A stretch of DNA of 32,952 nucleotides. Origin: Catajapyx aquilonaris (taxonomy: Eukaryota). Of this stretch, positions 1 through 32,952 are shown in pieces; positions within the stretch are counted from its first letter, which is position 1, and every line of letters begins with the position of its first letter. The translations under genes and the position numbers were made by a program. Below the pieces are notes generated by a model. That model had not been told where the DNA came from and searched no databases. It was given only the letters and a program-made list of their open reading frames with translations. Location: assembly GCA_000934665.2 (NCBI GenBank), contig KZ538233.1:62001-94952 (forward strand), written 5' to 3'.

Positions 1-2672
1 CTGACGTTTTATCAATTTATGGCTAAACCATGTAAGAAGTCGCATCCGCTCGAATTATGGCCCACTCAGTACCCATTTCCTACCGTTTGATATCCAGTTA
101 CGGTATCTCTCTCGTGACATCAGTGTGCTGTGGCATTTTCCATTTGCTTGCACAGTGAAGGTTAATCAATCAAAAGGTCAGGTAGCATACAGTCTCATCG
201 ATTCAGACGTGTCCGTGGGAATTGGGCTGTATCCTAAAGCCTCAGGTGGAATGTCAATTGGGTGGGATCAACTGAACTTGGGAACCACACTACTTTAAAA
301 CCTAAACAAAAGCGGCTCTATTGATCGCGGATACAAATATGGTAACATTTTCAACGAACTGAACATAGAGTTGTAACCAGCTTCTTATGAGTTAGCTCAA
401 AATGTATAATAACTAATGCATCACCATGCCGTCAAATTTTCACAAATGGCAGAGGTCGCCCAATCAAAACGTCAATAAAAATGCGGGAACAAGTTCCAAT
501 CGGCAGTAATAAGCCTGAACAATAAACGTGGACGCGTTTAATTTAAAGGATCATATTATGTCGAAGAACAATAGGTCCCTGGTCTTCTGCATACAATATT
601 TCCATTAGCGGGCTGGAATTCATTAGCTTTCATTACTCTCACGCGGTGACAAAAAATTAAGCCTTTTTAAAAGCTCATTTGCTTGAACACAATGATTTCA
701 ATAGTTTGGAATACATAATTATATAGCGTCATGGACGATGGGACGTGACGCTTTGTGCTGATGTACAAAAGATTCTAGTCCTACTATATCTGTCACAAAG
801 GCCTAATAACTACATCATGTCCGATTTTATATCGCCATTCTAATTACATCCAGATATATGCCCTGAAGAAACACGTGAAAAGCTCATCAGAATGCAGCAC
901 CGTCTCCGAAGGTGATTTCAAGCCCAGCCGGGTTCTCATTAAGCTCTGTCAGACGTTTCTTTTTAATTCTGCTCTCTTCTGTGCAAAAAACGAATGGCAT
1001 AAAAAAACGTGACATTCGTTTTTGCCATTTCCTGGTGAGAGACTTTGACGAATGCTTCGGAAAGCCCCACTTTCACACCTCATTCCCCAAAGGTTCATGA
1101 CATCATGCGTTGTCTTCGGGTCCGGATTTTTGTGACTGGAGCGGACGATGCCCCCCCCCCCCCCNCCCCCCATAATGGCGGATGCTGCTCGGGTTGGCAA
1201 TGTGTTCTGGAAGCCCCTGCTGTCGAAAAAAGGATTGTGTTTTTTCAAATTCCCCGCGGGGTTTCGACAACTGTGGCATTTCCGGATACAAATGACATAT
1301 ACGGTGCCTCGTTCCAGCGTGCACAGCACAGTATGCAAGCAGCTAATCAGACTTCTCCTTAATGGGGTCATATTGTCTACCACTAGAGTTTGAAATTAGA
1401 GTTAATGGGCTACAGTGCATCATTACCATTCGCTACCAGGGACAGACATTATTATTAGCAAGGTTTGTACATAATTAGTATTTCCATGTCATTATGAATG
1501 CTACATGCGGTTGGTCCCCCAAACTTTCAGTCAGATTTTCTATTATCAAATCATATGGTGTATGTCACAACTATAACCCATCACACACAGTATACATTCC
1601 ATATGAATTCATTGGTGCATTGTGCTATTATTACAAGCTAGCGCTGTAAATATGTGACATGGTCTGTCATTCTTCAACACCACTGACCTTTGATAAATAA
1701 ATTTTCAACGAGTAATTACCACAAGTAGGTCTACTGTAAATGTGTCCACAAGCTGCGACATCCCCGATTTAATTCAGCAATTAACGAGTAATCACTGGGT
1801 TCACGACAATGATAAGATTATACATTAATATGCCTGCAGTGATCTAAAACTGTCGCGAGTAACTGGCAAGAAAATAACGTGCCGCAGCCTGCAACGCATC
1901 AAAATACGACTATGTTGTGGCCAACATCCCTCTCGAAGGCCGGTCAAGATCAAAATTAGACTCACCGCATGTTTACAGTACATAGGTGGCCAATGTCATC
2001 GGTGTAGCTGCAGTGCAGCAGTTAATGTTAAACAAGCCTCAAACTGTTGGTACAAGTACGACCTTTAAAAAAACCCCGACTGGAAGCAACAGCGATGCCA
2101 CATTTCAAATGTTTACCACGGAAACAAGTTACATCACCTGTGAGTTAATCTCTCAACGCAAAATAGCCCGTTTCCTTCAAACCTCGCCAAAAATCCTAAG
2201 AATATAATAATGCATGTGAGGATGGAAACGACCCTCAGATTTACTCGCACGTCTTTGTCCTTGCAAATACTTGGGACCCTGGCCAGAAATTCTCGACGGA
2301 CTGAGCCACCCTCCCAAATCACGCTCGGGTTCACATTTGGCAACGCCGACTCTCACCCCTCGCCATTGAAATAATTACCACCATGTGTGCGAATGGCGAA
2401 AAGTGCAATTTCCTACCTCCTCCACAGCATCCAAATATGCCCGGGTCACACACCACTCTTTTTCACCCATTTCATCCAATCAGGATAATGCAAAAGGGGC
2501 CGGATGTGGGCCTGCTGGCTACATCGATGCATCCACATATATCTCCCACATCGTTCCGTTAAGTAAATATCTTTAATTAATTCCAGATAACCCTTTCATC
2601 AACCACCAACCTCCATTATACAGCACATTGATTGAGCATATATGGCTAATAAATTATAAGAAAGCACAAGTA

Positions 2673-2921
2673 CAGTGTTGGACATTAATCGCGTCATACT
2701 GCTTGCGACATTTGCTAATGCGGCAGAAGTGTAAATGGAAGTGTGAGCCGTGCGAGTATAAGAAGAGGTAGGCCTTGAGTGATGTCACCGGCTGGTGGTC
2801 CCAGCCAGTGACGTCACCCAAGGGCTACCATTTCTTACTCGCACGGCTCGCACTCCATCACTTCGATTTGCACGTCTGCCGCATCGGAATATGTCGCTAG
2901 CAATATGACGGAATTAATGTC
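2673..2921. mobile_element. Second copy of the same MITE, opposite orientation, right end degraded
   Basis: Starts TA|CAGTGTTGGACATTAATCGCGTCATACTGCTTGCGACATTT and matches the reverse complement of 6300-6527 along its length. Has extra central sequence; the terminal ~7 bp of the right TIR are missing. Confidence 0.85.
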
Positions 2922-5900
2922 ACGAGCAGGAAAATTCGCCAACAACTGCAGGGTGGAAAATGGAAAAGTTGCCCTTACCAAAAGCCATACATGATAGGTT
3001 GTCCTTTAGTATCAGGAAGCAGCAAGTTCCAAAACATGTCTACACCGTAAAATTGCAATCTCCAGAAGATTCGTACCCTCAAACTTTTCCATCACCCCTT
3101 TTCACGCCATTCCAACTTCACATCGCCAGCTGCCTCCTCATATTCTCTTCAAAAAAAAAAAAAAAAGGCAAAAAACCTTCTTAATTTTTTCTCTCTCTTC
3201 TCCCAACAAATTAGACGCCCGCATTTGCCACTCGAGCCGCCGTCGCCAATTACACACTTCTAGACTCACCCTATAACATATCGCTCCCGAAACTTCTCCA
3301 AACGAAACTTGGTCCGGAATTCGGTAAGACATGGCAGCTGCGAGTTTTCCCTCGACTCACAGCAAGAGACATGTTCCCCCCTCTGCAAGTCGAGCTCTCC
3401 AAGAAAGCAAGAAAAAAAAAAAGGAGACAGAAGAAGGTAGAAAAAGCAAGAAATTCTCCGAGTAGAAAGTCGCGGGATCCAAGTCGTTTCTGGCTATGTG
3501 CATCGCAGCTGACGTGTGCGATTTGCTTGTTGGCATTTCCGGATAACAAAAAATCCGGGGGCAGTGAAAAGAGAGGCGACGACAACGCTTGCAAAACAAC
3601 CATACCCACTTCAGTTGTAAAACCGACACCATTTCCATTCATGACCCAGCCCATGTCAACTAGGGGACGGCTAACGTTCTGCTACGGTGCAATTTGGCAG
3701 TAGGGACCTAGCATTTTGGCACCCCCTGCACTCCCAACCAACACTCAAAAGGCCGCAGAGTAAACAGAGTTATTTAATGTGGGAGCTCTAAAAGTAGTTC
3801 TGATCGTCGTAAAGAGGTTCTACTTCTAGTAAACGGTCAGATCAGATGCAAAGAGGGAAAGGAATTATATATGGAGGCGTTCAATTTTGAAAATGGACCA
3901 CTGAATGGCAAGAATCGGTTGGGAGATGAGGTAATTTTATTACGGTGGTTCTGATTTATATTCAAGTAGGATGAAAAGATGTCGGTGTACTTTGTTCTTT
4001 TACAATGGCGGAGTTTGTCATCCTCAACACGTGCTGGAGCTCCATGGCAACCAAGTTTTAAACATGCAAATGAGATTCAAATGTGCAACACTTGTTTTGG
4101 AAACTTCACAGATCACGTATCTACCTTACCCATAACTTCTCCTTTGTCAAGAAAAAAAAGGTATAATATTTTGCAAAGACTCCTCCCTTTTCCGTGATTT
4201 GTGTACTGTGCTACGGCCAAAAAGCCATTTCATGACGTCACATGTGGCACTGTACAATGACCAAATATAAAGTATTCAAAAAGATTAACAATTTACATTA
4301 CTGAACACATCCTGCCCACAACTCTACAAGCACCTTACTGTATGCTATATAAAAGATGCAAACTTCACGTACTACTTCGGTTTTAACATGTCGGTTTATA
4401 CGCTCCATTTATAAAAACCAACGCAGTCGCAATCCATCCCCCCACACTCATAATTACACCCCCATTCATTTACCAGATCATGCGTACAATTATTCTCAAA
4501 GCAACAAACTCGAAATTGCTAATAACGCTAATTGCGAACCTACACGAATAAAAATTAATATCCAACGGATCGAAAGGCACTGTGCACTCTCCCATCATAC
4601 CCCTCTCCACCATTCCAGGATACATCTGGCCAGCTGGCACGCACAGCTACTACCGCATTCATCCCAGTCCCGGTATCCAGGCAACCAAAAGACGATATAC
4701 ACCCATCCAGCCCTAGCTTCACCTTTACCCTGGCCTTCTCCCACTCACCAGATCTCATCTGTCTTCATAGACAGCATCCACCTGCGGTTCGATTCAATGA
4801 TGAAGTCAAAAAGCCCTTTTATTTTCCAATCAACCTTTCTATGCACTGCGCCTTACTAACAAGGAGCCGATCCATTATAGTCCAAATTGACGTACCTGCA
4901 CTAACATCAAAGATGATTCCCCAGTTTCCGGGCTCAAATAAAATCATATGCATGGGGGATGGGAGATATAAAGGGTGGGGGGCTGATATTGATTGGGCAG
5001 CAACCCAGCAAGAGCTTGAAAATGTTGATCGACTAGTGTGAGTCCAAAGTGCACAACCCAACGCGAAGCTTGTTTGGGCATGGGTGCAGCTGCTGCAATT
5101 CACCCCTCCCTATACCCCCAGCCTCGCCTCGTCATGAACCTTTTCCGTCACACCCATCAATGTACAGTTGTACACCTACAACTGAGCATCATACTGGGAA
5201 AGCAACAGTGTGCACACATTAACTGTATTATGTGTGATTATCATTGTAGTATGATGTGAACCAACCTTAAGATATGCTATGGATCAAGTGCAAATTTGAC
5301 TGCTAAATTACATTGGTCATATATACCTCAGCCTCATTTCAAATATGCCCTCATAACTATAAATCGAAACTCAATAACCCGAAAAGGCAAGCTCGGTTCA
5401 TATATAGCACACAAGAATGCATGGAATGACGGGATTGTTCATTATCTTCAATTTGCCTTTCAGCAAATGTCTGTCATTCTTCTGTGAAACCATCTATTAC
5501 TTCACGTCCTGGACATAGTGACTGCACAGTATTTCCAAGCAGGATTCGACTTCCACCCTAGAGAACTGTGCACCAATTAGAATCCATCTCTATATTAAAA
5601 AATGAAGCTACTTCCTCCCATCCCGCCACTTCCGCTTCAAAATGAGTAATAACCCTACCGAGCACAATGGCCAGTGGTGGGAGACTGCTTAGCTTAACTA
5701 AAATGCGACCGAAGCATCTGACCCCGCAAGTCCCCGCCCTCCCACCCCGCTCGCCCCGTGGCGGCCACCCACAGATAAATGAGTCCTGGGTCACTAATCA
5801 AACAAGCAAGGTCCATGCACTTCCACGTCTCTTGCCCACGGGCTGTCCGCAAGTACTTGCCTAGCACATGGAAGAGGGTTGGTGGGGACGAGGGGAGGTG

Positions 5901-20766: not shown

Positions 20767-21699
20767 CTGGAGGAGAATGAGACAGTATTAGACACTAGAA
20801 ACACAGGGAAATGTGCACACAGCCGTGACTAATAGTGGAATAGTCCCAGTGTTCATCAGACTCTTCAGGAAGGCAAGTGCAGCTAGAGAGAGAGTCAAGG
20901 CCTGGCAGCACTTTTGCTGGGCACTTGCCAGAAATCACTACAACTGTGTGTACAATCCATCATTTCCTGGTGATGTCAGTAATTTTGTGACGAAGTCAGT
21001 GCACTGTTGTGAGAATGTTTGCATCCAGCTATAAACTTGCACATAAAGTATTCAGCCACTGGGGATGTTTCGCTACCAAAAGGGAAAAAAACAAGCGCTG
21101 CAAAATTTATTTCAAGCACTTTCCCTGCAACATCTGATTAAACATGTCACGAATTTTGATTGATCCATACTGATATGATTCCGAGATATCCATAATGCTG
21201 TTACTAACTGGTTCTACCACTGTACGACAGTCACATAACCACTGTACTGTACATGACCACTGTGATTAAATAAAAATTTCTGCAAGCTTATTATACGTAT
21301 AGTATTTTACAAAATTGTATAGATAGCCTAATTTATTCTAAGAAGTTTGCAACTTATAAATGCAAAATTGGCTCCAATTCCTCCCACCCTGTGCACTTCC
21401 AGGAAAGTTGACAGGTTAAAAATGCAACCAAATATCTGTTCAAAAAAGGTAACAATCAAGTTTCTGTATTATTTTTTGGAGATTTAACTTTCCTAAGGTG
21501 TAGACTGCAAGGTGCACTGCAATGAACCACATTTTCAAATGTTTCCACCTGTACCTCAACCTGCTGTATGTCCATACCACACCTCCACCTGTAATATACC
21601 GCCTGTGGAGCTGTAGTACACACCCGGAGTAATGAGACCCCTTCCCCCATGCATGCCCCTTTTCCGTGGTAGTCCTGCACCTGTTCGATCCACCCTTCC

Positions 21700-22030
21700 A
21701 CTTGTGTCAAAAAATCACACCCTCCTGTCCGTCCTTCTCCATCCGCACTCACCAGCACAACAGCTGCTCGTGGTGGTGCTTCTGCTGCAGCAGTGCAAGT
21801 GCAGCTCCCCGGCGAGAGTCCTTCTGCAGCATCGGGGTGCTGCACCGACCTGGCCGGAGCGGGACCCGATCCCGCCCTCGTCCCCTCCGTCCCCGCCATC
21901 GCGCTCTGCCCCTCTCCCTCCCCCCGACGGACCCCCACCCCCCCACCAGACTTCGAACCGACGACTATCCCGACATCTGCAGGCCTCGACGGAAGGGCAA
22001 ACTGCGCGCCACATTTCAACCCATGTGTAG
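21700..22030 (-). promoter_or_regulatory. GC/CpG-rich island; probable promoter or first leader exon of the FAM135-family gene (donor CTG|gtgagt at 21753)
   Basis: Abrupt GC- and CpG-rich patch within CpG-poor flanks, ~2 kb upstream of the FAM135 ATG, with a consensus donor on the same strand. Confidence 0.55.
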
Positions 22031-22909
22031 TACCAGTGTTGGCCCAGGTGTATGCCAGGCAATGTTGCATGCATGTCCTGAAATATATTTTTTGGCACCA
22101 TCTCCCTTTGACACGATTTTAGCTCGATTCTTGTTGAACCCAACATGGATGGCACATGGATTTGAAAGAGTTGGACCAGTTGGACATACGGTAGCACAAT
22201 GTTATGGTTCCATCAGGTGTCCAATTTGTCACTTCTTCAGCCTGACAAGTTGCACAACGCCTATGGTAGTGATGCAGAAATTATTCTCTGTTCAAGTGTA
22301 CCATGAACTTGCAAACGATAAATCTTCGCCCACACTTGACGAGATCTGATAGTGAACTATACCATTTCAATCATTTCCTGTCAAACGGTTGGCTCACACA
22401 TAGTAACAACAGAAATGGCATTACACAAATACTGGTATATTTGGCAATAATACATTCTACGAAACAAGCACAATTTACTGAATCTTAACCATACTCAATT
22501 CACACAACATCAATCCATTCAAACTTGCATTTTATACCTGGTTATTGTAGTAATAGTCAGTTGCTGCTCTCACAAGCTCAATATTCCAACCTACATACCC
22601 TCCTTCATTACATTTTTCTCATTCTCTTTATACATATACTGTACTCATGGTTGTGTACATATCTATACAACACATTCATTAGAAAAAATTACATGTTACA
22701 ACCATAAAGTGGGAAGGAGATTCCTACTTTTTAAACACAGGAAAGCAGAAACTATATTCCCATAAAAAATTAATTGGTGAAAAAGGGGATACAAACTAGC
22801 AGCTCAAGTTGATATCTATTGCTTTTAACTTTCCTTACAATATTATGATCTGATGTGGAGGTTTAAGCATCACCAACAATTCTCTATAGTTGCCCTGTAC
22901 TTCCTTGTT

Positions 22910-23565
22910 TTTATTCCTGAGTGCCCATTGCTTTTCATTCATTAGCTGCAAAACTTGCAAAAAAAAATATTTTTTTTAGGAACAGTCCTGACTTGGACAC
23001 ATATCAAAACCAGCTGTTCTCACAGTAGAGTGGTCCTCCAACTTGACAAAATCCATTTAAAAAAGGTTAAAGAAATATTACAAACTAAGCACAAAATGTA
23101 ATGAGTAAATAAATGCACTATTGTGTGTTAAGTACCATCGAGAAAAAAAAAAATCATATTCCGATCGCTGCAAGTGAGTCAGGTACCACAACATGACCCT
23201 CACATTCCACTGTTACTGTCATTAACTGTCATAAATCATACTCCACATTTAGCTGCTGTACACATCTTCTAAATCCATTCCTGCTGCTTTGAATTACGTA
23301 TAGTAAACCTACAAAGTAAGCCCACACATGTGACACACAGGCGAGTATTGGAATGAGACCAACTACTGCAATCAGGATCCCCACACATGCTGCTCATAAC
23401 GATGATCATCTTTCCTAAAGGCTGTCCACCAATAGTTCGAGGTAGAACACTGACCACTGATCACTTCAAGTCTTGCTTTAAAAAAAATGGGGGGGAACCT
23501 GTCATAACCCACTCTCTCTCTCTCTCTGCCACAACTTCCTGTGGACTTCATGTCATGACTTTATT
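22910..23565 (-). terminator. Candidate polyadenylation signals of the raw-like gene (AATAAA at 23565-23560 and 22915-22910)
   Basis: AATAAA hexamers on the minus strand 1.4 and 2.0 kb after the stop, in AT-rich UTR-like sequence. Which one, if either, is used cannot be seen. Confidence 0.3.
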
Positions 23566-24936
23566 TGTAGTCTTCCCGTTTCCTTACTGGTGTGCTGTCT
23601 TTGTTACACTCATGTCTGCAAATACGTATAAAAAAGACTTGGGACGTAAATTACATTATTATATAATATGAGCACCAAACCTGCTCCCACGGTGGGTATT
23701 TTTTTACATCGCATTTAACCCATGTTAAATATGCGACGCCAGTCTTGGGTAGTCATTGCTATTGTTTGACAAATGCCTCTAACCAACAAGTGCAGTAGAC
23801 ATAGCAGTTACTGCACAACTGTAATCAAAATTGCTACCATGAACAACATATGATTTTTTCTTGATGTCTTGCTATTAAATAATACAAAATTGACATTTAT
23901 CTTCTGGCAGTTGCAAGTGACCTGACCATAACCATCCAAATGGGCATTTAATCATAATTACTATCAAGAAAGTAGAAGACTCCTTTCGCAATCCTGAATT
24001 CCTGATTAGCAGTAGCTTGCAGCAAGTTAAACTTTCAGGCACAATTCCCTGGGAATTTCTACAGCAGTATTAAACTATCCTGTCCCTGCCAGGTGATGGG
24101 ATTTGTTAAACAGAATGTTCCAGTGCAAGTCTGACCATCAGCACTGTGTAACGAATGAAACTTAGGCCTCCATGCCTTTCCAGTAGATGTAAAATTATGA
24201 TTGGTTTCAGAAAAAAACTACTTATAGAAACTGTTATTGTCAGCTCAACATAATGCATGTTCAAAAAAATATTTGGCTCACAGGCTCACACACAACTTAC
24301 AACACTGTACTCCAATCATATTAGTCAATCATTTAGTACTGCTTGTTAAGAATATTATTAAGGATATGATGATTTAGTGTTGTTTATATGGTTGACTTCA
24401 TTCACTTCCAGCAGTCACTTCAAGACTGGCAGACCATAAATACTGCGTCACTAGCAATTTCTGTACAAGTAATAGCATACTTCACTCCAAAAAAATATTA
24501 ATCCAATTCCTTTTGATTTTTAAAATATATGGGTCCTTATATTTTTAGCATGGCACCATCTCCTACTTTAATACTATTTGGCAACTGCTGCACTAACATC
24601 TAATTCTTCAATGACCAATGAGACTGACCTAGAAAACTGTACTGCAAATGGTAATACCAAGAATGCATTTGTCACTATTAATACAAGTCCCAGAAAAATT
24701 TGTTGTGCGAATGACCCAAGACTGGCAGTTACTCCGACTTCTAAAGAGCAACACCTTCACTAGTAATCTCAATGAGAACTCATCTCCAACCCTCTGCAAA
24801 ACTTTTGTTGTATCTTCACATGAAGAGATTACAACATTTTGGTTTTGACAAAAAACCAGCTGAGCTTGAAAAATATTCCAAACTTCACAAAAAATTGGCT
24901 GATCAAACCCCTTGGTAAGGTGGTCCCTCTTCCCTG

Positions 24937-25074
24937 CTATCGATTCTTGCACTTTTGAACCACACACTCTGCTGCTTCTGCAATGTCATCGAAGACAGGG
25001 ACACCCTCACGATTAGCCAAATCAGACAAATAAACTCGTCCACGGTTGTAATCCTTCAGGGCTTGCTTCGACAA
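24937..25074 (-). CDS. raw: raw-like terminal coding exon: LSKQALKDYNRGRVYLSDLANREGVPVFDDIAEAAECVVQKCKNR*
   Basis: Acceptor ttttctacag|TTG; stop TAG at 24939-24937. Aligns to the C-terminal part of repeat 1 (LQDLVERQGIPVFENI vs LSDLANREGVPVFDDI). Confidence 0.92.
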   Translation of the reverse strand: MSKQALKDYNRGRVYLSDLANREGVPVFDDIAEAAECVVQKCKNR

Positions 25075-28000
25075 CTGTAGAAAATAAAACATGATAAGTA
25101 CGGAAAATTTCTAAAACTAACAATCTGGGCCTCTTACCTTTTCACCATTTATTACACAATCTTCTGTTAGATGCTGCACACAGAGAACAGTGTTGCAGGA
25201 GAGTCCAATATAATGAGCAGCCTAGGGATACCATCAGAGTTAGTTGTGTAATGTTACTAATTAAACATTTTATGAAACTTATTTCATTTAATATCCAATG
25301 AAATCAAAATTAGGCTATGATAACTAGACGTCAATGTCTCTCAAAGCACATACCACATAATTATTCTCTAGGATATTTTCAATGGATTGGATTGAACATG
25401 CCCAGCAGCTTAACTCACCACAGCCATAGAAGACAGAGATCTGGTGCTCCCAGTAATGACAAACATAAGGACCCTACTGTTGTCCATGGCTGCTGCTTCT
25501 AATGGCACAAGACGTTTTGTCCACTGGCTCACTTGTGGGTTGAAGTAGGTATATCCATTTTTCCTATGTACAATTTTAGTGTCATAACATGTTCACTGTA
25601 TGTACTATATCGCCCAAAAAGATAAAGACGATTTTGCATTTGACTCAAGTGCAACTTGCACTTGAATCAAATGCCAATCGTCTCTATCTTTTTGAGCGAT
25701 ATAGTACAGTATATACAGCATATCATTGTGGTTGTTTACTTTAGGATAGGGATGACAATATCTTCTCTCCAAGTAGTAGCACCACATGATCCGCCCAAAT
25801 AAACATCTCTCACTATACTGCTCTGACCATTTGTTGAGCTACTTGGTAAGCGTAGGAGCCTCATTGGTCGAGGAGAGAGTGCCCACTCTGCAAAAAAGTA
25901 CACGGATAAATTAATTTTCACTTGCTAACCATCATGGCATATCTCTTAATGTCATACAAGGGTTTTCCTTTTAAGGATGTCATCAGGTCTCCAGTGGATT
26001 CCTTGGCCTAAAATGAGTTTACAGTGTAACAGTCAGAAAGAGTGAGAAATGTTCAAGAACTAACTGGTAATGAACTAGATGGTGAGCAACATGTAGCAAT
26101 TCACACTGCACATTCAAGAATATTGCTTATTCCATCTTCCACATGATTCAGGCTGTGCCTGGTTGAGCATACCTATTCATACATTTCAGGATAAGGTGCA
26201 GTAAGGGTTGTCGAATATGTCAAAGTGCAGCCAAATGTTTGTCATCTATTATTATCCGTTGGTTCTTGAACATTTTTGTTTTTAGATTTCACACATGCTT
26301 TGGGCAGAAGAACCAACTGATGACCAGTATGACACACTAGCAAGCAATACCATGGAGAGTGCAATGGTAAATAATAGTTGATCTAGACAAGCCTTTACGG
26401 TGGCTAATTCCTACCTAGCATCCTAGCAATAGGGCAGAAAACTGTTTGGAGGAAGTTGCTGGTTTTGGTAGCCACCACGTCCCAAACCCGTCGATTCTCA
26501 CATCTCTGGTTGGTAAATTCGGCCATGATGGTACAAAACTCCTCAAAGTTTACAACTATCTCTTCAGTTTCCTTAAAGCTGCTCCTGACTCCTCTGTGGC
26601 TTGCTATTATGCTCTTCAACTCCTCCAGGGAGAGGTCCTTATTGGTGAGGATTCGAAAGGCCATACACACCTAATAAAGAGTTTCATAATGTGTGAATAG
26701 AGGTAAAATTAGAGTACGAAATATATTTAAAATTAAATACACACATCCGGTAGTGAGAGTTCCCCACTGCTTGACGTGTCCAGAGCATTAAAAGCTTCCC
26801 TTAGTTTCCTGTATGAAATAATGATAACATTAGTCTGATCACTGCCACTACACTGACGAAGCTGAAACAAAGTTGTAGGCTTACAGTAGCCTATCTCCAA
26901 GCTGCACATGGGCCATCTTGACGGGTTGAGCAAAATCTTTCAGTCCCAGTTCCTGCACGTTGAGGTTCTCTCTCAAAACTTTAGCAGTGCAATTCAGTGC
27001 CACTGAAATGTTCTCGAACACAGGGATTCCTTGCCTCTCCACCAGGTCTTGCAGGACCATCTGTCCATTTGTCAAGTCCTCAAATTCCCTGAAAATCACA
27101 AATTTTAGCCACCATGATAATTATCAAGAAATCAATGCCCTACATACTGTTGGGAGATGGGTTCTCCAAGGATCTTCTGGCCAGGACCTTCATAGCCATT
27201 GATAATGAGGACGAGTTTCCTCTGACGCCCCGAAGAGTGAGCTGCTTCGATGATGGAAGCTACTCCTCTTGTTTGGTTGTCGATCACAAAGAACAACACT
27301 GAGGCATTCTGCTTGGCTTGGTTCTCGCGTTCAATCAGTTCAGGACCCCAATGGGACACTTGCTGCAAGACAAAAATTATGTTGAGCTAAGCCCTTACAA
27401 ATGGGCATAAACAACAACTGCAAATGCATCTTACCGGGTTGTAGTACGTTATGCCCAGGCTCTTCAACATTGGGATGGCTATATCTTGCCTCCATGTGGT
27501 TGGATTACAGGATCCACCCAAAAATACTTCATACTTGGACATGCACTCTGAAAACAAAATTAATATAATATTTATACTGTACAGTAAGTAAATAATGTAT
27601 CAGTTAATTTATTACACAACTTGTACAATACTCACTCGGCATCTTCCGGTCGACCCTCTTCTTGTCAACTCCATTCTTATCAGCAAGTTTGGAGAGCTGT
27701 GCTGGCTTGGGAGCTCTGTAGCAAAAAACAACACTGTTGTAAACACTGACACCACCATCAATCGTTACAAACTCACTCTCTCTCGTAGCATTTCTTCAGC
27801 TCGGCTGCAAAAACGCAAAATTCTCCAAAGGTCAGGTAAGCTGCCGTGTTGCGGTTGCTGCATTCTCTGGCACAGTGGAGCATCTCGTAAACTGCACAAT
27901 GAGAGGGAAAAATCCGACATGTAACTCGTGCTGTGGCAGAGTAAGGTGGGAATTACATGACATAAAGCTCATAAATACTATAAAACTGCTACAGCTACAA

Positions 28001-28825
28001 GCATTCTACGGCGGGGAAATGGTGGGATACAACACTACACTTGTAATACATGCAATGTGCGTAAGTCGAATTTGGGTCCTTGAGATTTTCAGTGATCATT
28101 CTTGTTATGATTACGTAACAATATTTTCCCAGCCATCGAGTCAACCCATAATTGGCAAGTAAACGTTTCATGCATAATTACTCCACAGATGAGCTATGAT
28201 GTTTTCTTTGCGGTTCACAAAGTCAGCTGCATTTTATTTGCGTCTGTTATTCCACCTGACAGCTTCCTCGTGTCCTAGCACCGTAAATTGCACCTGTCGT
28301 GAAGGTATCATTAAAAGTACATATAAACAAACTTTATGAAGTGTAGCCACGCCTTCAGGTTGGCCATGATGTCCTACATTTGCCAGAGCTGTACTGTTCA
28401 CTGATATATCGAGCACACCTCATTTCCTTCAACTTATGCATATTGCAAGCCAAGCGGTTCACAAAAATAACAACTGATGCCAAGTAGCAATAAGGACAAT
28501 CAAAGCTATGGGACATGCTCAAGGAAGTTATCACTGTCAATAGATGGCATTCATGGCCATCCTAAAAATGTGGCCTGAGTCACCCATCCTCATATGATTG
28601 GTTCAATTGAGACATTTATCCATAGAGGGGCAATTTCAACATTTGTTTACAACGGCCATGGTTTTGTGAACAATCTATACACATGCTGACACCGAACATG
28701 CATGTGCTCGCTCACCTTGTGATTTGGACGGATACAACTCCATGTCGTGGAAAAGGTGTTGCACGTGCTCCGCCGGAATGTAGTTTGTGGATCCCACTCT
28801 CCCGTACCATGCCGCAAAGAGGTCC
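24937..28825 (-). CDS. raw: Raw-like protein (two EF-hand-like pairs and two NDT-like domains); spliced gene, 11 exons found, 5' end incomplete or starting at ATG of MELYPS
   Basis: Exons 28825-28716, 27891-27777, 27715-27636, 27547-27435, 27362-27148, 27088-26885, 26808-26745, 26670-26415, 25887-25740, 25563-25419, 25221-25138 plus terminal exon 25074-24937 join through GT-AG introns into one open frame of ~556 aa ending TAG (11 internal exons + terminal exon). Two copies of the motif V[FY]LGGSC..TTWR.DI.IP.LK..G.TY[YF]NPQVS.W, which I recognise from Drosophila Raw and its homologues. Confidence 0.88.
25138..25221 (-). CDS. raw: raw-like exon: AAHYIGLSCNTVLCVQHLTEDCVINGEK
   Basis: Acceptor tatccctag|GCT and donor AAG|gtaaga. 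84 nt, phase 0/0. Confidence 0.9.
25419..25563 (-). CDS. raw: raw-like exon: KNGYTYFNPQVSQWTKRLVPLEAAAMDNSRVLMFVITGSTRSLSSMAV
   Basis: Acceptor tacatag|G and donor GTG|gtgagt. 145 nt; aligns without gaps to repeat 1. Confidence 0.92.
25740..25887 (-). CDS. raw: raw-like exon: WALSPRPMRLL...RDVYLGGSCGATTWREDIVIPIL (start of NDT-like repeat 2)
   Basis: Acceptor ttttttgcag|AG and donor AA|gtaaac. 148 nt. Confidence 0.9.
26415..26670 (-). CDS. raw: raw-like exon: VCMAFRILTNKDLSLEELKSII...VNFEEFCTIMAEF...PIARML
   Basis: Matches ORF 26404..26670(-). Acceptor tctttattag|GTG and donor CTAG|gtagga. 256 nt; second EF-hand-like VNFEEF. Confidence 0.88.
26745..26808 (-). CDS. raw: raw-like exon: KLREAFNALDTSSSGELSLPD (EF-hand loop)
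   Basis: Acceptor tttcatacag|G and donor GAT|gtgtgt. 64 nt; calmodulin-like LREAF..LD....G.LS pattern. Confidence 0.9.
26885..27088 (-). CDS. raw: raw-like exon: EFEDLTNGQMVLQDLVERQGIPVFENISVALNC...QLGDRL
   Basis: Matches ORF 26881..27099(-). Acceptor attttcag|G and donor CT|gtaagc. 204 nt. Confidence 0.92.
27148..27362 (-). CDS. raw: raw-like exon: QVSHWGPELIERENQAKQNASVLFFVIDNQTRGVASIIEAAH...GEPISQ
   Basis: Matches ORF 27132..27368(-). Acceptor tcttgcag|CAA and donor CA|gtatgt. 215 nt. Confidence 0.92.
27435..27547 (-). CDS. raw: raw-like exon: CMSKYEVFLGGSCNPTTWRQDIAIPMLKSLGITYYNP (start of NDT-like repeat 1)
   Basis: Acceptor ttgttttcag|AG and donor CCG|gtaaga. 113 nt; family signature VFLGGSCNPTTWR. 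Confidence 0.92.
27636..27715 (-). CDS. raw: raw-like exon: APKPAQLSKLADKNGVDKKRVDRKMP (linker)
   Basis: Acceptor ttttttgctacag|A and donor A|gtgagt. 80 nt; phase-compatible with both neighbours. Confidence 0.85.
27777..27891 (-). CDS. raw: raw-like exon: YEMLHCARECSNRNTAAYLTFGEFCVFAAELKKCYER (EF-hand-like)
   Basis: Acceptor gtgcag|TT and donor GA|gtgagt. 115 nt; contains EF-hand exit helix pattern LTFGEF. Confidence 0.88.
28716..28825 (-). CDS. raw: raw-like exon: DLFAAWYGRVGSTNYIPAEHVQHLFHDMELYPSKSQ
   Basis: Acceptor ccccccctccctgcag|G and donor CAAG|gtgagc. 110 nt; the trailing G joins TT of the next exon (Val). Calmodulin-like 'MELYPSKSQVYEML' linker. Confidence 0.8.
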
Positions 28826-29187
28826 CTGCAGGGAGGGGGGGCATTCCCAATCAAACTTCCCAGCACTGCACTACTTTCTTCGGATGTACAGGGTGGCCAC
28901 AAAATCTGGAACCAGAAGATTACTGTCAAACAATTCAAGCCAAGGAGGTTCCAGAGTTCGTCGAAACCCTGTACATTACTGCAGTTAGATTGTGATGAGT
29001 GTGAAAAAATATATATTCTGACACGACCCTTCCCATCTCTGCCAGTCGCCAATCACGGTTTTATCGCTGATGAAAAGGAGGATACCAATCATTCAAACGA
29101 TCCTTCTAGGATAATGAACAAAACCCTTTCACTGAACCAGCAATTACGAACGATAAACGTACTAGGAATTAGCTCAAAAAAAAACAA

Positions 29188-31423
29188 TGACGTCACCAAT
29201 TGTATGTCACTAAAAAGTCCACAAAAACCGAAAGTTCCCCTATCTGAAAGCATGACATAATCGCTGACTTCACATTATGCAAATTCTTTCCTCACCAGCC
29301 AATTAACTCCTAACCTTTCAGTTGATTTTAAATCAAACTTCAAATTTTTCTACCACGTTTTTAGGTGGTGCCCTGTAAAAATAAAACGCCAGCAGCCCCC
29401 CTCCACGATAACCCCTTACCCTAGTAAGTTCGAATGACATCATCGTTCCAACAAGCCCTGTGCGTTTATAAATGCAGGGTTGAATAGTGGGGGTAAAAGG
29501 AAGGAGGGGCCAAGTGATGGCACAGACTGACAGCACCCAACGCCGCAGAATGGGAAAGCGTTCATTATCTTTTACTCGCGCACTGCCTTTGTAAAGTACA
29601 GTGAATGACGTCGACATGCCCTATGACATCAGCCTGCATGTCATCAACGAAGCAACATAGCAAATCATTACAATAGACGAAAACGGTTGCACTTTCAACA
29701 CGGCCATAACCGGCCATAACAATCGTGATTTATAGCAGCCAGTAAGGGGTGAAAGAACGGAAGCTGCCCTTTAAAATGACATCATGGTCTCGTTCCATTA
29801 TTTTTCAAACCTACCTCTACCACAACTGATGTCATCCCCCGAACTGCCCCTAATTACTTGCGTACATCGTTGGTCAGCCATTGTTGTCTTGCCTCACACA
29901 AGGTGCAAAAACTTTTCGTATCGTACCTGACCCTTGCTTTCACCTTGAAGGTTCAAGGTTTCAAGCAGGACGTGGGAGAAGTGTTCAACAGTTTTTCCTT
30001 CCGAGGACTCGGTAAACGCACTCCAAATGTGGAGATGACCTAGCTGCTTTTCTTGGGAAAAACGGACAATCACGGCTTGGTTACGAAAGACCAGATTTTT
30101 TAAAGCTGGGAGCCGCATTTAGCTCAGATTTTCTTCGTGGCAGAACAAGTGTCGTTAGCAGCTGGTCGTAAAACCGGCAGAAAAAAAAGTTCATGGTTCT
30201 ATGACATCATGCCAACCCAGATACATTCCACGTGCTGCACTGCTGCGCCTATTCGATCAAATAATATGTCCATGGGCACCAACCTTGAAAGCACACGTCA
30301 AATACAACAAACCAGCCTATTCAGCAAGGTGCATAAGTCAACACCAAAATGTCAGACCCAACCTGTCATCTACACCCAAAAACACCATACAAAAAAAACA
30401 AGTATATCCAGTTCTGCGGCACTCGCGACGTAACTGCAAACGACAGAAGTGGGAGAGGCCCCAAGAAACAACAACAAGGTGCCGAAGATTACCATCCTCC
30501 TCCTGCTGGGGGTTAATCTGATAGGGAGTGGCTCTTTACGTAAGATCCCCACAATATCATATCGACACATTGTACCCGGTTCCTATGGCGTGATGTTTTG
30601 GAAAGAAACTGCGCGGTAGGCGGTTCTCAAAGTGGTCTCGGGCACCACTCACCCACACTGGTACCCCCCAACCTCTTTTCTATCCTAACTCTTCTTCCCC
30701 ACTCGACCCCCTAAGCAGAGGCCTGTGACATCATGGCTAAATCGGTGGGTCCATGGCACGGAAGGAGGAGGAGAATACATACAAGCTGCCAGCCGGCGTG
30801 TGTGTGTAACATACACATACCCAAAACTGCTCCTTTCTTTGTCGAAACGACGCTACAAATAATTTAACAAATTAAATGTAATTTGTACAAATTGTGTAAA
30901 ATTAGACTGAATGCAAAAAAAATACTGCCTAATAGTCAGATGTTTGTCCTGCCTGATAGTATCGCTCAGGAACAGGGTGCGCCTGCAGAATAGTACTGCA
31001 TTAAATTACTTGTCACTATCATACTGATAGGTGTGGCCAAATTTTGGCAACGTGTACAAGTATTCATGAAAAAATATCTTTAAAAGGCACTAATCGAGCC
31101 CTTTACAGCACGAGGATATCAAGTTTCCCGCCCAACATTGTTTCATTGAATGCTGATAAAAACGGGTATTAACGAGCCCTGCCGCAGAGTACCTGTTCCC
31201 GGCAACAAAAAGGGTTATGCAGTATTCACAAACCAACCGCAACTGTCAACCTGTCCGTACACCCCGCGGGTTCATCATAAATAAATCGGCGCAAACTGCG
31301 GGAGCCACATAATAGCATTCCTTCCCGCCTTGCCCAATAGATTGTTCATCGTTTTTTAAACGACACAAAATAATTTCCCAACTATTCAGATCACTGGATA
31401 GAGGCACCCTGGGTGTGACGTCA
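29188..31423. promoter_or_regulatory. Cluster of 8 CRE/ATF-like octamers (TGACGTCA, TGACATCA/TGATGTCA) 5' of the raw-like exons
   Basis: Sites start at 29188, 29435, 29624, 29777, 29827, 30202, 30726 and 31416. The motifs are directly visible; regulatory function is inferred. Confidence 0.45.
29701..29720 (+). repeat. 10-bp tandem duplication CGGCCATAAC x2
   Basis: Directly visible. Confidence 0.9.
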
Positions 31424-32952
31424 GTGTTGATCACGTCGAAAATGGGGTTAATAAATACTAAAAGGACAGCTGGGCCAGCCAGCCTATTACGCAAGGGTCT
31501 AAATCGGCCGATGAGAGTACACATTAGTGCATGTGTGTGGCTTCCACATAACCAAACCCCAAGCTATCAGCTGCTCAATGAACGATTCGTTGTATCGCAT
31601 CCGCACACGTGACCGCAAAAACGCTGTTTACAAAACACAAGCTCATTGCCAAGGTGACGTTATATTTTTTTCGGCTTCTGCGCGGTTAGCAAATGCGACA
31701 TTTGCATAGTCAGTGCGCAGTTTTTTTTTCCCCCTGCAAGTCGTTGAAAGTCTTGCCAGGCTCATTGTGTGTTTCCATGGGGGTTCGACTGATTTTTATC
31801 GGAGAACATATACGGCACACATGTCTGCTTCTCGTATGGAGTCAAAGTACAATGTCAAGCCCACGCGTCTGATAGTCCTTCAGGTTTTAATACTTGATAA
31901 GTGCACCGAGTCATTTAAAATGCTACCTTTCCGAATGTCAAAAGTCCTCTACCATAAAGGGCATGGTCTGACATTTTCGCATGAAACTGCCAAAACTTTT
32001 TGAACCTTTTCCGCCATGTGATTTCCTACACTAAAAAACTTCCAGGAGAAAGTTTCCCGCAAGTTGCACCCCGGAACCAGGCCAATGATAAATGACACCG
32101 TGGGCAACCTTCCGAATGGCACGCGGATCAAGAAAAAAAAGGAGAGAGATAACTTCTTCCAGATCCGCCCATCATTCTTCGCCAAAATCAGGTTTCGCGA
32201 CTTAGGGAAGAGGGGCATCTGCATTGAAATCTGGGAATCTGCCAGCACACACAAAGGGCTGGGGGATATTTACAGACAAAAAGTTTAATCAATTGTGACT
32301 TCGACTATAGTCATTAATTCGTAGACAGATTCATCAATCAGTAATACAGGATCGTTCTGCATGTTTTGGCTCTTTAAAAATTGTCAAATATAACCTAGTA
32401 ATTAATTGTGATTTCTTTAAATGCCAATGACGCATTTTCTGGCACAACATACATTTGCCACCGTTTTCCGCCCATCAAATTAGCGCTCTTCATCTACACA
32501 ACGACACCCTTTGCGAACTACGATAAGCACCGCTTTACTCGGCCGGATGAGACGTCATCACCTGTGACACGGCCGCTTTATCTGGGCGCATTCCTCAGCA
32601 TCCAGAAGCATGTTTACGTTACACCCCCCTACCCTACTTATATAAAAAAAATTGCAATGTGGGCGTAGAAGTTGTAGTGCAGCAGCAGCAGCCTACCCGA
32701 TCTACTTTATCTGCAGTGTGGGCGAAAATGGCCGAGCTGGAGAAAATATACACATACTATGTATACACTGTACAGAGGACCTCTGAGCTCACTTCCGCAC
32801 CATGTACTCAATGAGTTACGCGCCGATGCAGGCCTGCTATGGACCTCTCACCCACTAGTCGCCTAGGCAAGCAACATTTTTCATAAGAAAACTGCACTTA
32901 ATGAGGAGAACACCAAACTTGGCATACATCATGCCCACACCTATTGTCAACG

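Follow-up and report, generated by a model that had tools for sequence, protein, structure and literature searches.

Raw/OLRN-1 orthologue of Catajapyx aquilonaris with two fused NDT-like repeats and one composite active site, most likely a cADPR hydrolase

The window (the whole stretch of DNA analyzed, 32,952 nucleotides of C. aquilonaris contig KZ538233.1) carries on its minus strand an ordinary, intact raw orthologue. The encoded Raw/OLRN-1 protein is a fused pseudo-dimer of two NDT-like repeats with one composite active site, which most likely converts cADPR to ADP-ribose; we put the probability of this reading at about 0.9. The composite site and the cADPR-hydrolase activity of Raw are already known, as both were published for the fly in June 2026 (Chen et al., PMC13455253). 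Three points go beyond the accessible text of that paper: the placement of the repeats nearer to NDT than to TIR proteins, the decay of a second site, and the EF-hand identity of the "dimerization domains".

Gene model and transcript evidence

The raw gene was modeled as 12 exons that join into one 556-codon open frame; each of the 11 introns has GT-AG borders. All 11 modeled introns were absent from the spliced contigs of run X1; the library type of this run is unrecorded, and it was used as RNA evidence only because its contigs skip introns. One confirmed intron, skipped in the X1 contigs, interrupts the repeat-2 motif MAV|AAH. An extra exon near 26007-25931 was rejected, as the frame closes without this segment and the X1 contigs skip it. 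Loose ends of spliced contigs were located at 27894, 28829, and 28908. The search for the first exon(s) of raw was unsuccessful because the contig ends where the window ends. A transmembrane segment is unlikely in the window protein, where the highest 19-residue hydropathy was 1.38. The raw locus was the only one in the genome with a PF15891 match. The gene model is as follows:

24937..28824, minus strand: raw coding part within the window (one open frame, spliced contigs)
28824-28716, minus strand: raw model exon
27891-27777, minus strand: raw model exon
27715-27636, minus strand: raw model exon
27547-27435, minus strand: raw model exon
27362-27148, minus strand: raw model exon
27088-26885, minus strand: raw model exon
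26808-26745, minus strand: raw model exon
26670-26415, minus strand: raw model exon
25887-25740, minus strand: raw model exon
25563-25419, minus strand: raw model exon
25221-25138, minus strand: raw model exon
25074-24937, minus strand: raw model exon, with stop

Domains and site residues, with fly Raw numbering, are:

27777..28824, minus strand: N-terminal helical domain (DD1); a degenerate EF-hand pair in which inspection showed no calcium loop
26980..27530, minus strand: repeat 1, NDT-like (PF15891; TIR-1 in PMC13455253), catalytic half (Pfam, domain limits)
27507..27524, minus strand: FLGGSC of repeat 1, with Phe = fly F354 and Cys = fly C359 (alignment)
27324..27326, minus strand: Glu = fly E396, the first of the two catalytic acids; at the NDT Asp position, with a proposed acid/base role
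27246..27248, minus strand: Glu = fly E422, proposed nucleophile, singled out in the preliminary description (alignment to fly Raw)
27046..27078, minus strand: DLTNGQMVLQD of repeat 1, putative remnant of the donor half of the second site
26503..26898, minus strand: linker domain (DD2), an EF-hand pair akin to calcineurin B/centrin with the second hand degenerate
26745..26780, minus strand: single EF-hand-type loop (D1, S3, S5, G6, S9, D12), an imperfect calcium site
26659..26661, minus strand: Ala = fly A532, in the EF-hand exit helix (alignment)
24955..25807, minus strand: repeat 2, NDT-like (TIR-2 in PMC13455253), phosphate/base-binding half (Pfam, domain limits)
25419..25421, minus strand: Val of repeat 2 at the E422 position, where the putative nucleophile of the second site is lost
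25021..25053, minus strand: DYNRGRVYLSD of repeat 2 = fly D946, R949, Y953, D956

The two repeats and the decay of one site

In the window protein, a single chain carries two PF15891-type repeats in tandem. As the preliminary description had presumed in calling the repeats NDT-like, PF15891 matched four exons, two per repeat, with scores above the cut-off for repeat 1 (34.7 and 33.9 bits) and below it for repeat 2 (17.9 and 27.5 bits). The near-gapless alignment described there was reproduced (140 columns, 61 identities, 1 gap), and its score of 299 compares with 28 ± 5 (maximum 62) for 500 shuffles. The Glu codon 27248-27246 of repeat 1 indeed faces the Val codon 25421-25419 of repeat 2, and DYNRGRVYL (25053-25027) of repeat 2 lies opposite DLTNGQMVL (27078-27052) of repeat 1. 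The complementary decay read from these differences held in that Glu is lost from repeat 2 and N/R/R/Y from repeat 1. However, the losses are partial: in repeat 1 the D-x-N-R motif still has its Asp, and repeat 2 retains the first catalytic acid (E457, at the E396 position), with only the second acid gone.

An NDT-type dimer would have two symmetric sites, each pairing the Glu half of one domain with the helix-D half of its partner. In Raw, the chain would be laid out as (EF-hand pair + NDT-like domain) × 2, a fused pseudo-dimer with site A complete (F354/C359/E396/E422 of repeat 1 and D946/N948/R949/Y953 of repeat 2) and both halves of site B decayed. Conservation was counted over 104 representative two-repeat homologues. 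Repeat 1 has Glu at the E396 position in 98 of them (4 gaps) and at the E422 position in 102, and repeat 2 has D, R, and Y at the D946, R949, and Y953 positions in 102, 102, and 101, respectively. The other halves are more variable: repeat 1 has Arg at the R949 position in 39/104 and Tyr at the Y953 position in 19/104, and the E422 position of repeat 2 is occupied by E (47), L (31), M (10), D (6), or V (4). The asymmetric conservation that had been anticipated is therefore evident for the repeat-1 Glu and the repeat-2 D/R/Y, but not for the repeat-2 position, where nearly half of the homologues keep Glu. Site A is complete in 101/104 homologues and site B in 23/104; both are complete in 21/104, which indicates that one of two ancestral sites decayed. 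Ptychodera, Antedon, and Codosiga have such two-site homologues. In a repeat-level IQ-TREE, which is provisional as it carries no support values, holozoan first repeats grouped together, as did second repeats.

Composite site and substrate

Drosophila Raw hydrolyzes cADPR, and both of its repeats are required (PMC13455253). Each of the substitutions E396A and E422A in repeat 1 and R949C and Y953N in repeat 2 abolishes this activity, NAD, cGDPR, and cIDPR are left intact, and worm OLRN-1 also removes cADPR (PMC13455253). These fly mutants bear out the proposal of the preliminary description that repeat 1 supplies the Glu and repeat 2 the D-x-N-R-G-R of a single N-glycosidase site, and the fly activity agrees with its view of Raw as a nucleotide-processing signaling enzyme; its statement that no enzymatic activity was assigned to Raw is outdated, as Raw has been a cADPR hydrolase since 2026. 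All nine residues named in that paper (F354, C359, E396, and E422 in repeat 1, A532 in the linker, and D946, R949, Y953, and D956 in repeat 2) are identical in the window protein when aligned to D. melanogaster Raw (P0392), at an overall identity of 41%. FLGGSC of repeat 1 is invariant in 43/43 arthropod proteins. From the fly enzyme and this residue identity, Catajapyx Raw most likely hydrolyzes cADPR as well.

In the worm, deletions destroy olrn-1 function if they take out the C-terminus or the first part of repeat 1, but not if they take out the first part of repeat 2 (PMC2213652). The C-terminal deletion would remove the DYNRGR helix, and the deletion pattern is consistent with a single site. 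Sarm-like ARM-SAM and TIR exons were found in the C. aquilonaris genome (L007). We take them to be Sarm on the basis of their motifs rather than a named database match. By converting cADPR to ADP-ribose, Raw would remove a messenger made by Sarm.

The preliminary analogy to deoxynucleoside enzymes pointed to the wrong substrate class: the published substrate is cADPR, not NAD (PMC13455253), and Phe replaces the deoxy-specific Tyr in repeat 1. This strand-1 position, matched by topology, is Phe in the window protein and in 43/43 arthropod proteins; Tyr in classical 2'-deoxyribosyltransferases excludes ribosylated substrates (PMC12884076). The range of nucleosides and nucleotides used across the NDT superfamily would leave room for another preferred substrate in this lineage (deoxynucleosides, dNMPs, NMN, or NAD), but this is very improbable, given that the ribose-excluding Tyr is replaced, that all named site residues are those of the fly enzyme, which leaves NAD, cGDPR, and cIDPR untouched, and that the fly and worm enzymes both destroy cADPR although they are far more distant from each other (PMC13455253). 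A different arrangement would be a site formed between two Raw molecules, from repeat 1 of one and repeat 2 of the other, with the EF-hand domains driving dimerization. NDT sites do form between chains, and DD1 and DD2 were named dimerization domains, the deletion of which lowers activity (PMC13455253). We nevertheless consider such a two-chain site unlikely, because the single-chain model of an orthologue already reached a pTM of 0.70 and has pLDDT values near 90 in the two repeats, because the 166-residue inter-repeat linker of the window protein suffices for intrachain packing, and because the pocket lies within one chain in the models of PMC13455253. From these models, we infer packing of the composite site within one chain.

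Fold of the repeats and catalytic mechanism

PF15891 matched 10/10 homologues and PF05014 weakly matched 1/10, and these NDT-like families were the only ones matched. No match to a Pfam TIR family was obtained for 11 window exons or for the 10 homologues, under HMMER filters that discard most matches above E of about 0.1. In both wide fold searches, the putative NDT BDI_0649 (PDB 4mcj) was the top match (Z 12.2 and 12.6), with the best TIR domains following at a small margin (Z 9.8 and 10.7); the rmsd was 2.5 for the best NDT (Z 12.6) compared to 3.0 for the best TIR (Z 10.7). The SARM1 TIR domain matched with Z 8.7. By Foldseek E-value, a plant TIR came first (6.6e-5 vs 9.1e-5), and the whole 580-residue model gave no Foldseek match at E ≤ 0.001. 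The best 60 of 89 matches of the full-length profile contained no NDT or TIR structure, only EF-hand proteins and one proline dehydrogenase; the single-repeat profile likewise gave no NDT or TIR structure among its 9 chance-level matches. Taken together, the Pfam and fold searches suggest that the repeat is nearer to NDT-like proteins than to TIR domains.

This placement suggests E422 as the nucleophile. The first acid and the Glu of Raw repeat 1 are 26 residues apart, as are D62/E88 of CtNDT and N77/E103 of DmtZ, and topology together with this spacing suggests that E422 matches the NDT nucleophile. In the AF3 model of fly Raw, E396 contacts the 2'-OH and E422 the 3'-OH (PMC13455253), which are the contacts that NDT enzymes reportedly make through their Asp and their nucleophile, respectively. 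By analogy with DNPH1/NDT, the reaction would proceed by double displacement, with E422 attacking C1 of the N1-linked ribose and becoming covalently joined to it, E396 both holding the 2'-OH and activating water, and R949 binding the pyrophosphate; we lean towards this joint assignment of the three roles. Of note, CtNDT D62N retains about 50% efficiency, in contrast to the inactive Raw E396A (PMC13455253), and the roles proposed for E396 and E422 in PMC13455253 differ from the NDT-based ones. In the two TIR-type models put forward there, no covalent E422 intermediate is formed: model 1 has E422 hold the ribose hydroxyls and E396 activate water, and model 2 makes E396 the nucleophile. Such chemistry would fit the closeness of the TIR and NDT fold scores and the one-step mechanism proposed for SARM1, which has an equivalent Glu. 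It fits less well with the second-acid position, which reportedly holds no functional residue in classical TIR domains but an essential Glu in Raw, or with the Pfam results, in which all 10 homologues matched NDT-like families but no TIR family. We regard TIR-type chemistry as a serious possibility, albeit a tentative one.

EF-hand domains and calcium

DD1 and DD2, the "dimerization domains" of PMC13455253, are EF-hand pairs. DD1 in the model of orthologue P0002 (residues 77-154) matched centrin (Z 9.7, rmsd 1.8 over 74 residues), and DD2 matched calcineurin B in a profile search (E 7e-6). The DD2 profile matched 11/77 N-terminal regions. Profile-profile comparison of DD1 and DD2 gave a weak match (probability 29.5%, 20 columns), and their common origin therefore rests on the fold matches and on the Diphylleia homologues, which have four canonical loops; those of Pigoraptor have two. 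The EF-hand pairs would serve mainly as a scaffold.

The exon bearing the EF-hand-type loop is present in spliced contigs. The loop (26780-26745) fits the PROSITE pattern, which none of 100 shuffles did, but its Pfam EF-hand score was 19.5 bits compared to a cut-off of 25. Among 43 arthropod proteins, 40 have D1, 41 have G6, and all 43 have D/E12; these positions also play structural roles in EF folds. A PROSITE-type loop was found in 7/104 representatives, 6/43 arthropod proteins, and 0/120 Diptera-led matches, and fly Raw lacks the loop in the alignment. The "EF-hand-gated" site of the preliminary description is not supported beyond the EF-hand fold itself: the calcium loop is imperfect, has a patchy distribution, and is missing from the active fly enzyme.

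The same enzyme could still be calcium-gated if Ca2+ (or Mg2+) at the inter-repeat EF loop shifted repeat 2 relative to repeat 1 and altered cADPR hydrolysis in non-dipteran Raw, with the switch lost in flies. The EF-hand fold of DD2, the PROSITE fit of the window loop, the near-constant D1, G6, and D/E12, and the canonical Diphylleia and Pigoraptor loops would agree with this. So would the raw-dcp-1 allele A532D, which is damaging in the fly (PMC13455253) and sits in the exit helix of the loop-bearing hand. PMC13455253 calls the regulation of Raw unknown, and the assays in its accessible text cover the fly and worm enzymes only. Against such a gate stand Ser at position 3 and Asp at position 12, the Pfam score below cut-off, the degenerate partner hand, the rarity of the loop, and the possibly structural conservation of its key positions. 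Moreover, loop-less fly Raw, eluted in 1 mM EDTA and assayed in PBS, reaches a kcat/Km of about 1.4e8 (PMC13455253); as the assay dilutes the EDTA, trace calcium may be present. The supplement text of PMC13455253 mentions neither CaCl2 nor EGTA. On balance, a calcium gate is doubtful. It is likewise improbable that ancestral Raw was a calmodulin-like, calcium-sensing cADPR hydrolase whose non-dipteran orthologues still sense Ca2+ via the linker EF hand against repeat 2 and form a covalent ADP-ribosyl ester on E422 (NDT/DNPH1-type, not TIR-type). If true, calcium sensing by Raw would link a calcium-mobilizing messenger and its eraser in a closed feedback loop, and the sensing would have been missed because the assayed fly enzyme lost the loop.

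Implications and comparison with known systems

Hydrolysis of cADPR explains how Raw/OLRN-1 opposes or assists Sarm/TIR-1 in JNK signaling, axon degeneration, and neuron asymmetry. This was already demonstrated in the fly, and the window contributes only a compact orthologue. The accessible text of PMC13455253 leaves the regulation and the catalytic mechanism of Raw open; the EF-hand identity of DD1/DD2 bears on the former and the NDT reading of E396/E422 on the latter. As a compact protein free of long loops, the window protein is a more promising candidate for structure determination and for a cADPR-removing reagent than the fly enzyme is.

The window protein shares with fly Raw the nine named residues, the asymmetry at the E422 position, and a presumed Sarm in the genome. 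It differs in being much more compact, without long disordered loops, in keeping the EF-hand-type loop and the repeat-2 Glu at the E396 position, and in having lost the Arg at the R949 position of repeat 1, which is still present in the fly. The four-domain layout, with DD1 and DD2 before each repeat, is that of fly Raw and C. elegans OLRN-1 (PMC13455253).

With the NDT superfamily (PF15891 (Nuc_deoxyri_tr2), BDI_0649 (PDB 4mcj), CtNDT, LlNDT, MilB, DNPH1/Rcl, phage DmtZ, and the retron Ec86 effector), Raw shares the Pfam family, the best fold match, the aromatic/acid/Glu triad with 26-residue spacing, and the completion of the site by a second domain; the retron Ec86 effector is described as an asymmetric dimer with one site occupied. 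In contrast to this superfamily, Raw fuses two domains in one chain, has one dead site and attached EF-hand pairs, carries Phe for Tyr and Glu for Asp, and has a cyclic dinucleotide as its published substrate. TIR NADases (SARM1, plant NLR TIR) resemble Raw in the alpha/beta fold (Z up to 10.7), the NAD-derived substrate and, by topology, the helix Glu, whereas Raw has no Pfam TIR match, its second acid is essential, and the fly enzyme does not cleave NAD. DD1 and DD2 have the helix-loop-helix pair fold of calcineurin B, centrin, and CaBP1, but the window protein has at most one imperfect loop, and four canonical loops were observed only in the Diphylleia homologues.

Structure and splicing of the raw gene

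The raw orthologue lies on the minus strand and is spliced from 12 exons (28824 to 24937), whose 556 codons read through in one open frame. All 11 introns of the model are of the GT-AG type, and the same 11 introns are exactly absent from the contigs of one public run (library type unrecorded). The skipped introns include the one within the repeat-2 motif, on which the Val in repeat 2 depends, and both introns flanking the EF-loop exon. No first exon could be located within the window, at whose end the genomic contig also ends. Loose ends of the spliced contigs at 27894, 28829 and 28908 point outside 23500-32952. They suggest alternative acceptors and at least two distinct upstream exons beyond 23500-32952, and hence several N-terminal isoforms. 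One spliced contig covers 23500-24937 without gaps and continues beyond 23500, so the 3′ UTR may exceed 1.4 kb. The downstream region 21456-22349 is GC-richer and skewed, with several open frames overlapping on both strands.

Matches to PF15891, the NDT-like family, fall in four exons of raw, and no second PF15891 locus was found when the best candidates in the 286 Mb assembly were scored. The closest relatives among the matches listed are cricket and cockroach Raw (identity up to 74%), which makes a non-dipteran insect the probable host. Dipteran orthologues are labeled "NDT-like domain-containing protein raw" by NCBI, and several relatives "EF-hand domain-containing protein" in UniRef.

The two repeats probably contribute to one composite site

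The preliminary description had reported nearly gapless repeats, a Glu in repeat 1 (codon 27248-27246) and a Val at the equivalent position in repeat 2 (codon 25421-25419). Both codons were confirmed. An alignment of the repeats spans 140 columns, 61 of them identical, and needs one gap; its score is 299, compared to 28 ± 5 for 500 shuffles. For comparison, we used Drosophila melanogaster Raw (P0392, 989 aa), in which the nine residues numbered by Chen et al. 2026 (PMC13455253) were verified. All nine are identical in the window. The Glu corresponds to fly E422, and DYNRGRVYLSD contains the equivalents of D946, R949, Y953 and D956.

According to that paper, Drosophila Raw hydrolyzes cADPR to ADPR (Km 20–47 nM, kcat/Km about 1.4e8), leaves NAD, cGDPR and cIDPR uncleaved, and requires both repeats, whose distinct conserved residue sets form one pocket. 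Worm OLRN-1 also removes cADPR. Activity is lost in the mutants E396A, E422A, R949C and Y953N and nearly lost in A532D. Because the Glu is E422, the proposed Glu-to-Ala exchange has already been carried out in the fly, with loss of activity. The observation is real, and the single composite site proposed from it is correct, but already published for fly Raw. Further literature drawn on was PMC10913048, 10.1101/2023.08.16.553469 and 10.64898/2026.09.21.753143.

One of two symmetric sites has decayed

In a set of 150 representatives (50% identity), the key columns were both covered in 104 two-repeat proteins; the other 46 were single-repeat proteins (22), had three or four pieces (7) or were gapped at key columns (17). 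The E422 position holds Glu in 102/104 first repeats and 47/104 second repeats. At the R949 position, 102 second repeats and 39 first repeats have Arg; at the Y953 position, the corresponding counts for Tyr are 101 and 19. Site A, formed by the repeat-1 Glu and the repeat-2 Arg, is complete in 101 of the 104 proteins and the converse site B in 23, with 21 proteins having both; the state of the window is the commonest (40). The two-site proteins include one hemichordate, one crinoid and two choanoflagellates. The asymmetry is reversed in two long proteins, P0150 and P0165 (the latter from Amorphochlora amoebiformis), where repeat 1 lacks both glutamates but has the Arg, and repeat 2 has both glutamates. 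Five stand-alone single-repeat proteins of 148–171 aa (P0258, P0248, P0257, P0253, P0260) all have both glutamates, and two have the Arg. They come from metagenomic or read assemblies and are candidate homodimeric forms. P0063 and P0183 (Cyanophora paradoxa) carry three near-identical complete repeats, or four divergent ones.

In a FastTree tree of 100 proteins (the window and 99 of the 104; midpoint-rooted, built without the state columns), site B seems to have decayed repeatedly, namely in a sponge lineage, in a Peronospora clade and in the clade to which the named arthropods belong; deep supports are weak. From the site counts and this tree, the "complementary degeneration" of the repeats described earlier amounts to decay at one site of a symmetric pair. 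This decay is only partial, as the Asp position of the DxNR motif in repeat 1 retains Asp in 65/104 and Glu in 30/104, and the first-acid position in repeat 2 retains Glu in 57/104 and Asp in 14/104. Older worm deletions are consistent with such decay: according to PMC2213652, function is abolished when the initial portion of repeat 1 or the C-terminus is deleted, whereas it survives deletion of the initial portion of repeat 2.

EF hands and calcium

The "dimerization domains" of PMC13455253, an N-terminal domain before repeat 1 and a linker before repeat 2, are EF-hand pairs. The linker profile matches calcineurin B (E 7e-6), and the N-terminal domain in the model of orthologue P0002 matches centrin (Z 9.7, rmsd 1.8 over 74 residues). 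In Diphylleia homologues each repeat is preceded by two canonical loops, pointing to (EF pair + NDT) × 2 as the ancestral layout. The term "EF-hand" is absent from the main and supplementary text of PMC13455253, whose figures may label these domains or show two-site forms, and from the searched part of PMC2213652; the papers listed in the literature search included none on EF hands of Raw.

The preliminary description had also raised a possible EF-hand-gated active site. Such gating is not supported. The window has a single imperfect loop (Ser at position 3, Asp at 12, Pfam score below cut-off) with a degenerate partner hand. PROSITE-type loops occur in only 7/104 linkers (0.1 expected), in 6/43 arthropod proteins and in 0/120 Diptera-led matches (both sets with isoforms and close species). 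The loop is missing from fly Raw, yet this enzyme, eluted in EDTA and assayed in PBS, is highly active (PMC13455253). An obligatory gate is unlikely. Loop-bearing orthologues may still be gated, though with low probability: the 43 arthropod proteins keep D1 (40), G6 (41) and D/E12 (43), A532 sits in the exit helix of the loop-bearing hand, and PMC13455253 gives the regulation of Raw as unknown. P0144 and P0147 (Diphylleia rotans) have four canonical EF-hand loops and P0068 (Pigoraptor) has two; these three are the most promising candidates for cADPR hydrolysis regulated by calcium.

Sarm and other TIR genes

The same genome contains a gene that we take to be Sarm-like from its motifs:

L007, G000:C362:52500-57500, 1909-4593, minus strand: 614-codon ARM-SAM open frame, then TIR exons

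It is likely the cADPR-making partner of Raw, and its presence together with raw in one genome agrees with the reported Raw/Sarm co-occurrence. Six more TIR_2 matches (L001–L006; open frames of 649–1241 aa, those of L001 and L002 equal in length) are probably Toll-like receptors.

NDT or TIR

The repeats are termed TIR domains in PMC13455253, and "deoxyribosyl" is absent from its main and supplementary text (term search). Pfam assigned 10/10 homologues to PF15891 and none to a TIR family. We modeled two homologues of the window protein, P0002 (pLDDT 71.8, pTM 0.70) and the stand-alone repeat P0258 (pLDDT 90.6). The best fold match of both was the putative NDT 4mcj (Z 12.2 and 12.6), by a small margin over the best TIR (Z 9.8 and 10.7); below the top three, TIR and NDT rows were interleaved. 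Foldseek placed a plant TIR first by E-value, yet with worse rmsd.

E422 is probably the nucleophile (probability about 0.6), although the two models of PMC13455253 both give it other roles. This assignment is favored by spacing and modeled contacts. E396 and E422 lie 26 residues apart, as do D62 and the nucleophile E88 of CtNDT, and N77 and E103 of DmtZ. According to a preprint, the double displacement of DNPH1 employs a second acid of this kind, which classical TIRs lack. In the models of PMC13455253, E396 contacts the 2′-OH and E422 the 3′-OH, as has been reported for the Asp and the nucleophile of NDT, respectively. Against this assignment, CtNDT D62N retains half efficiency, whereas Raw E396A has no activity. 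In repeat 1, Phe stands at the position of the Tyr that excludes ribose in deoxy-specific NDTs (PMC12884076), which fits a ribosyl substrate.
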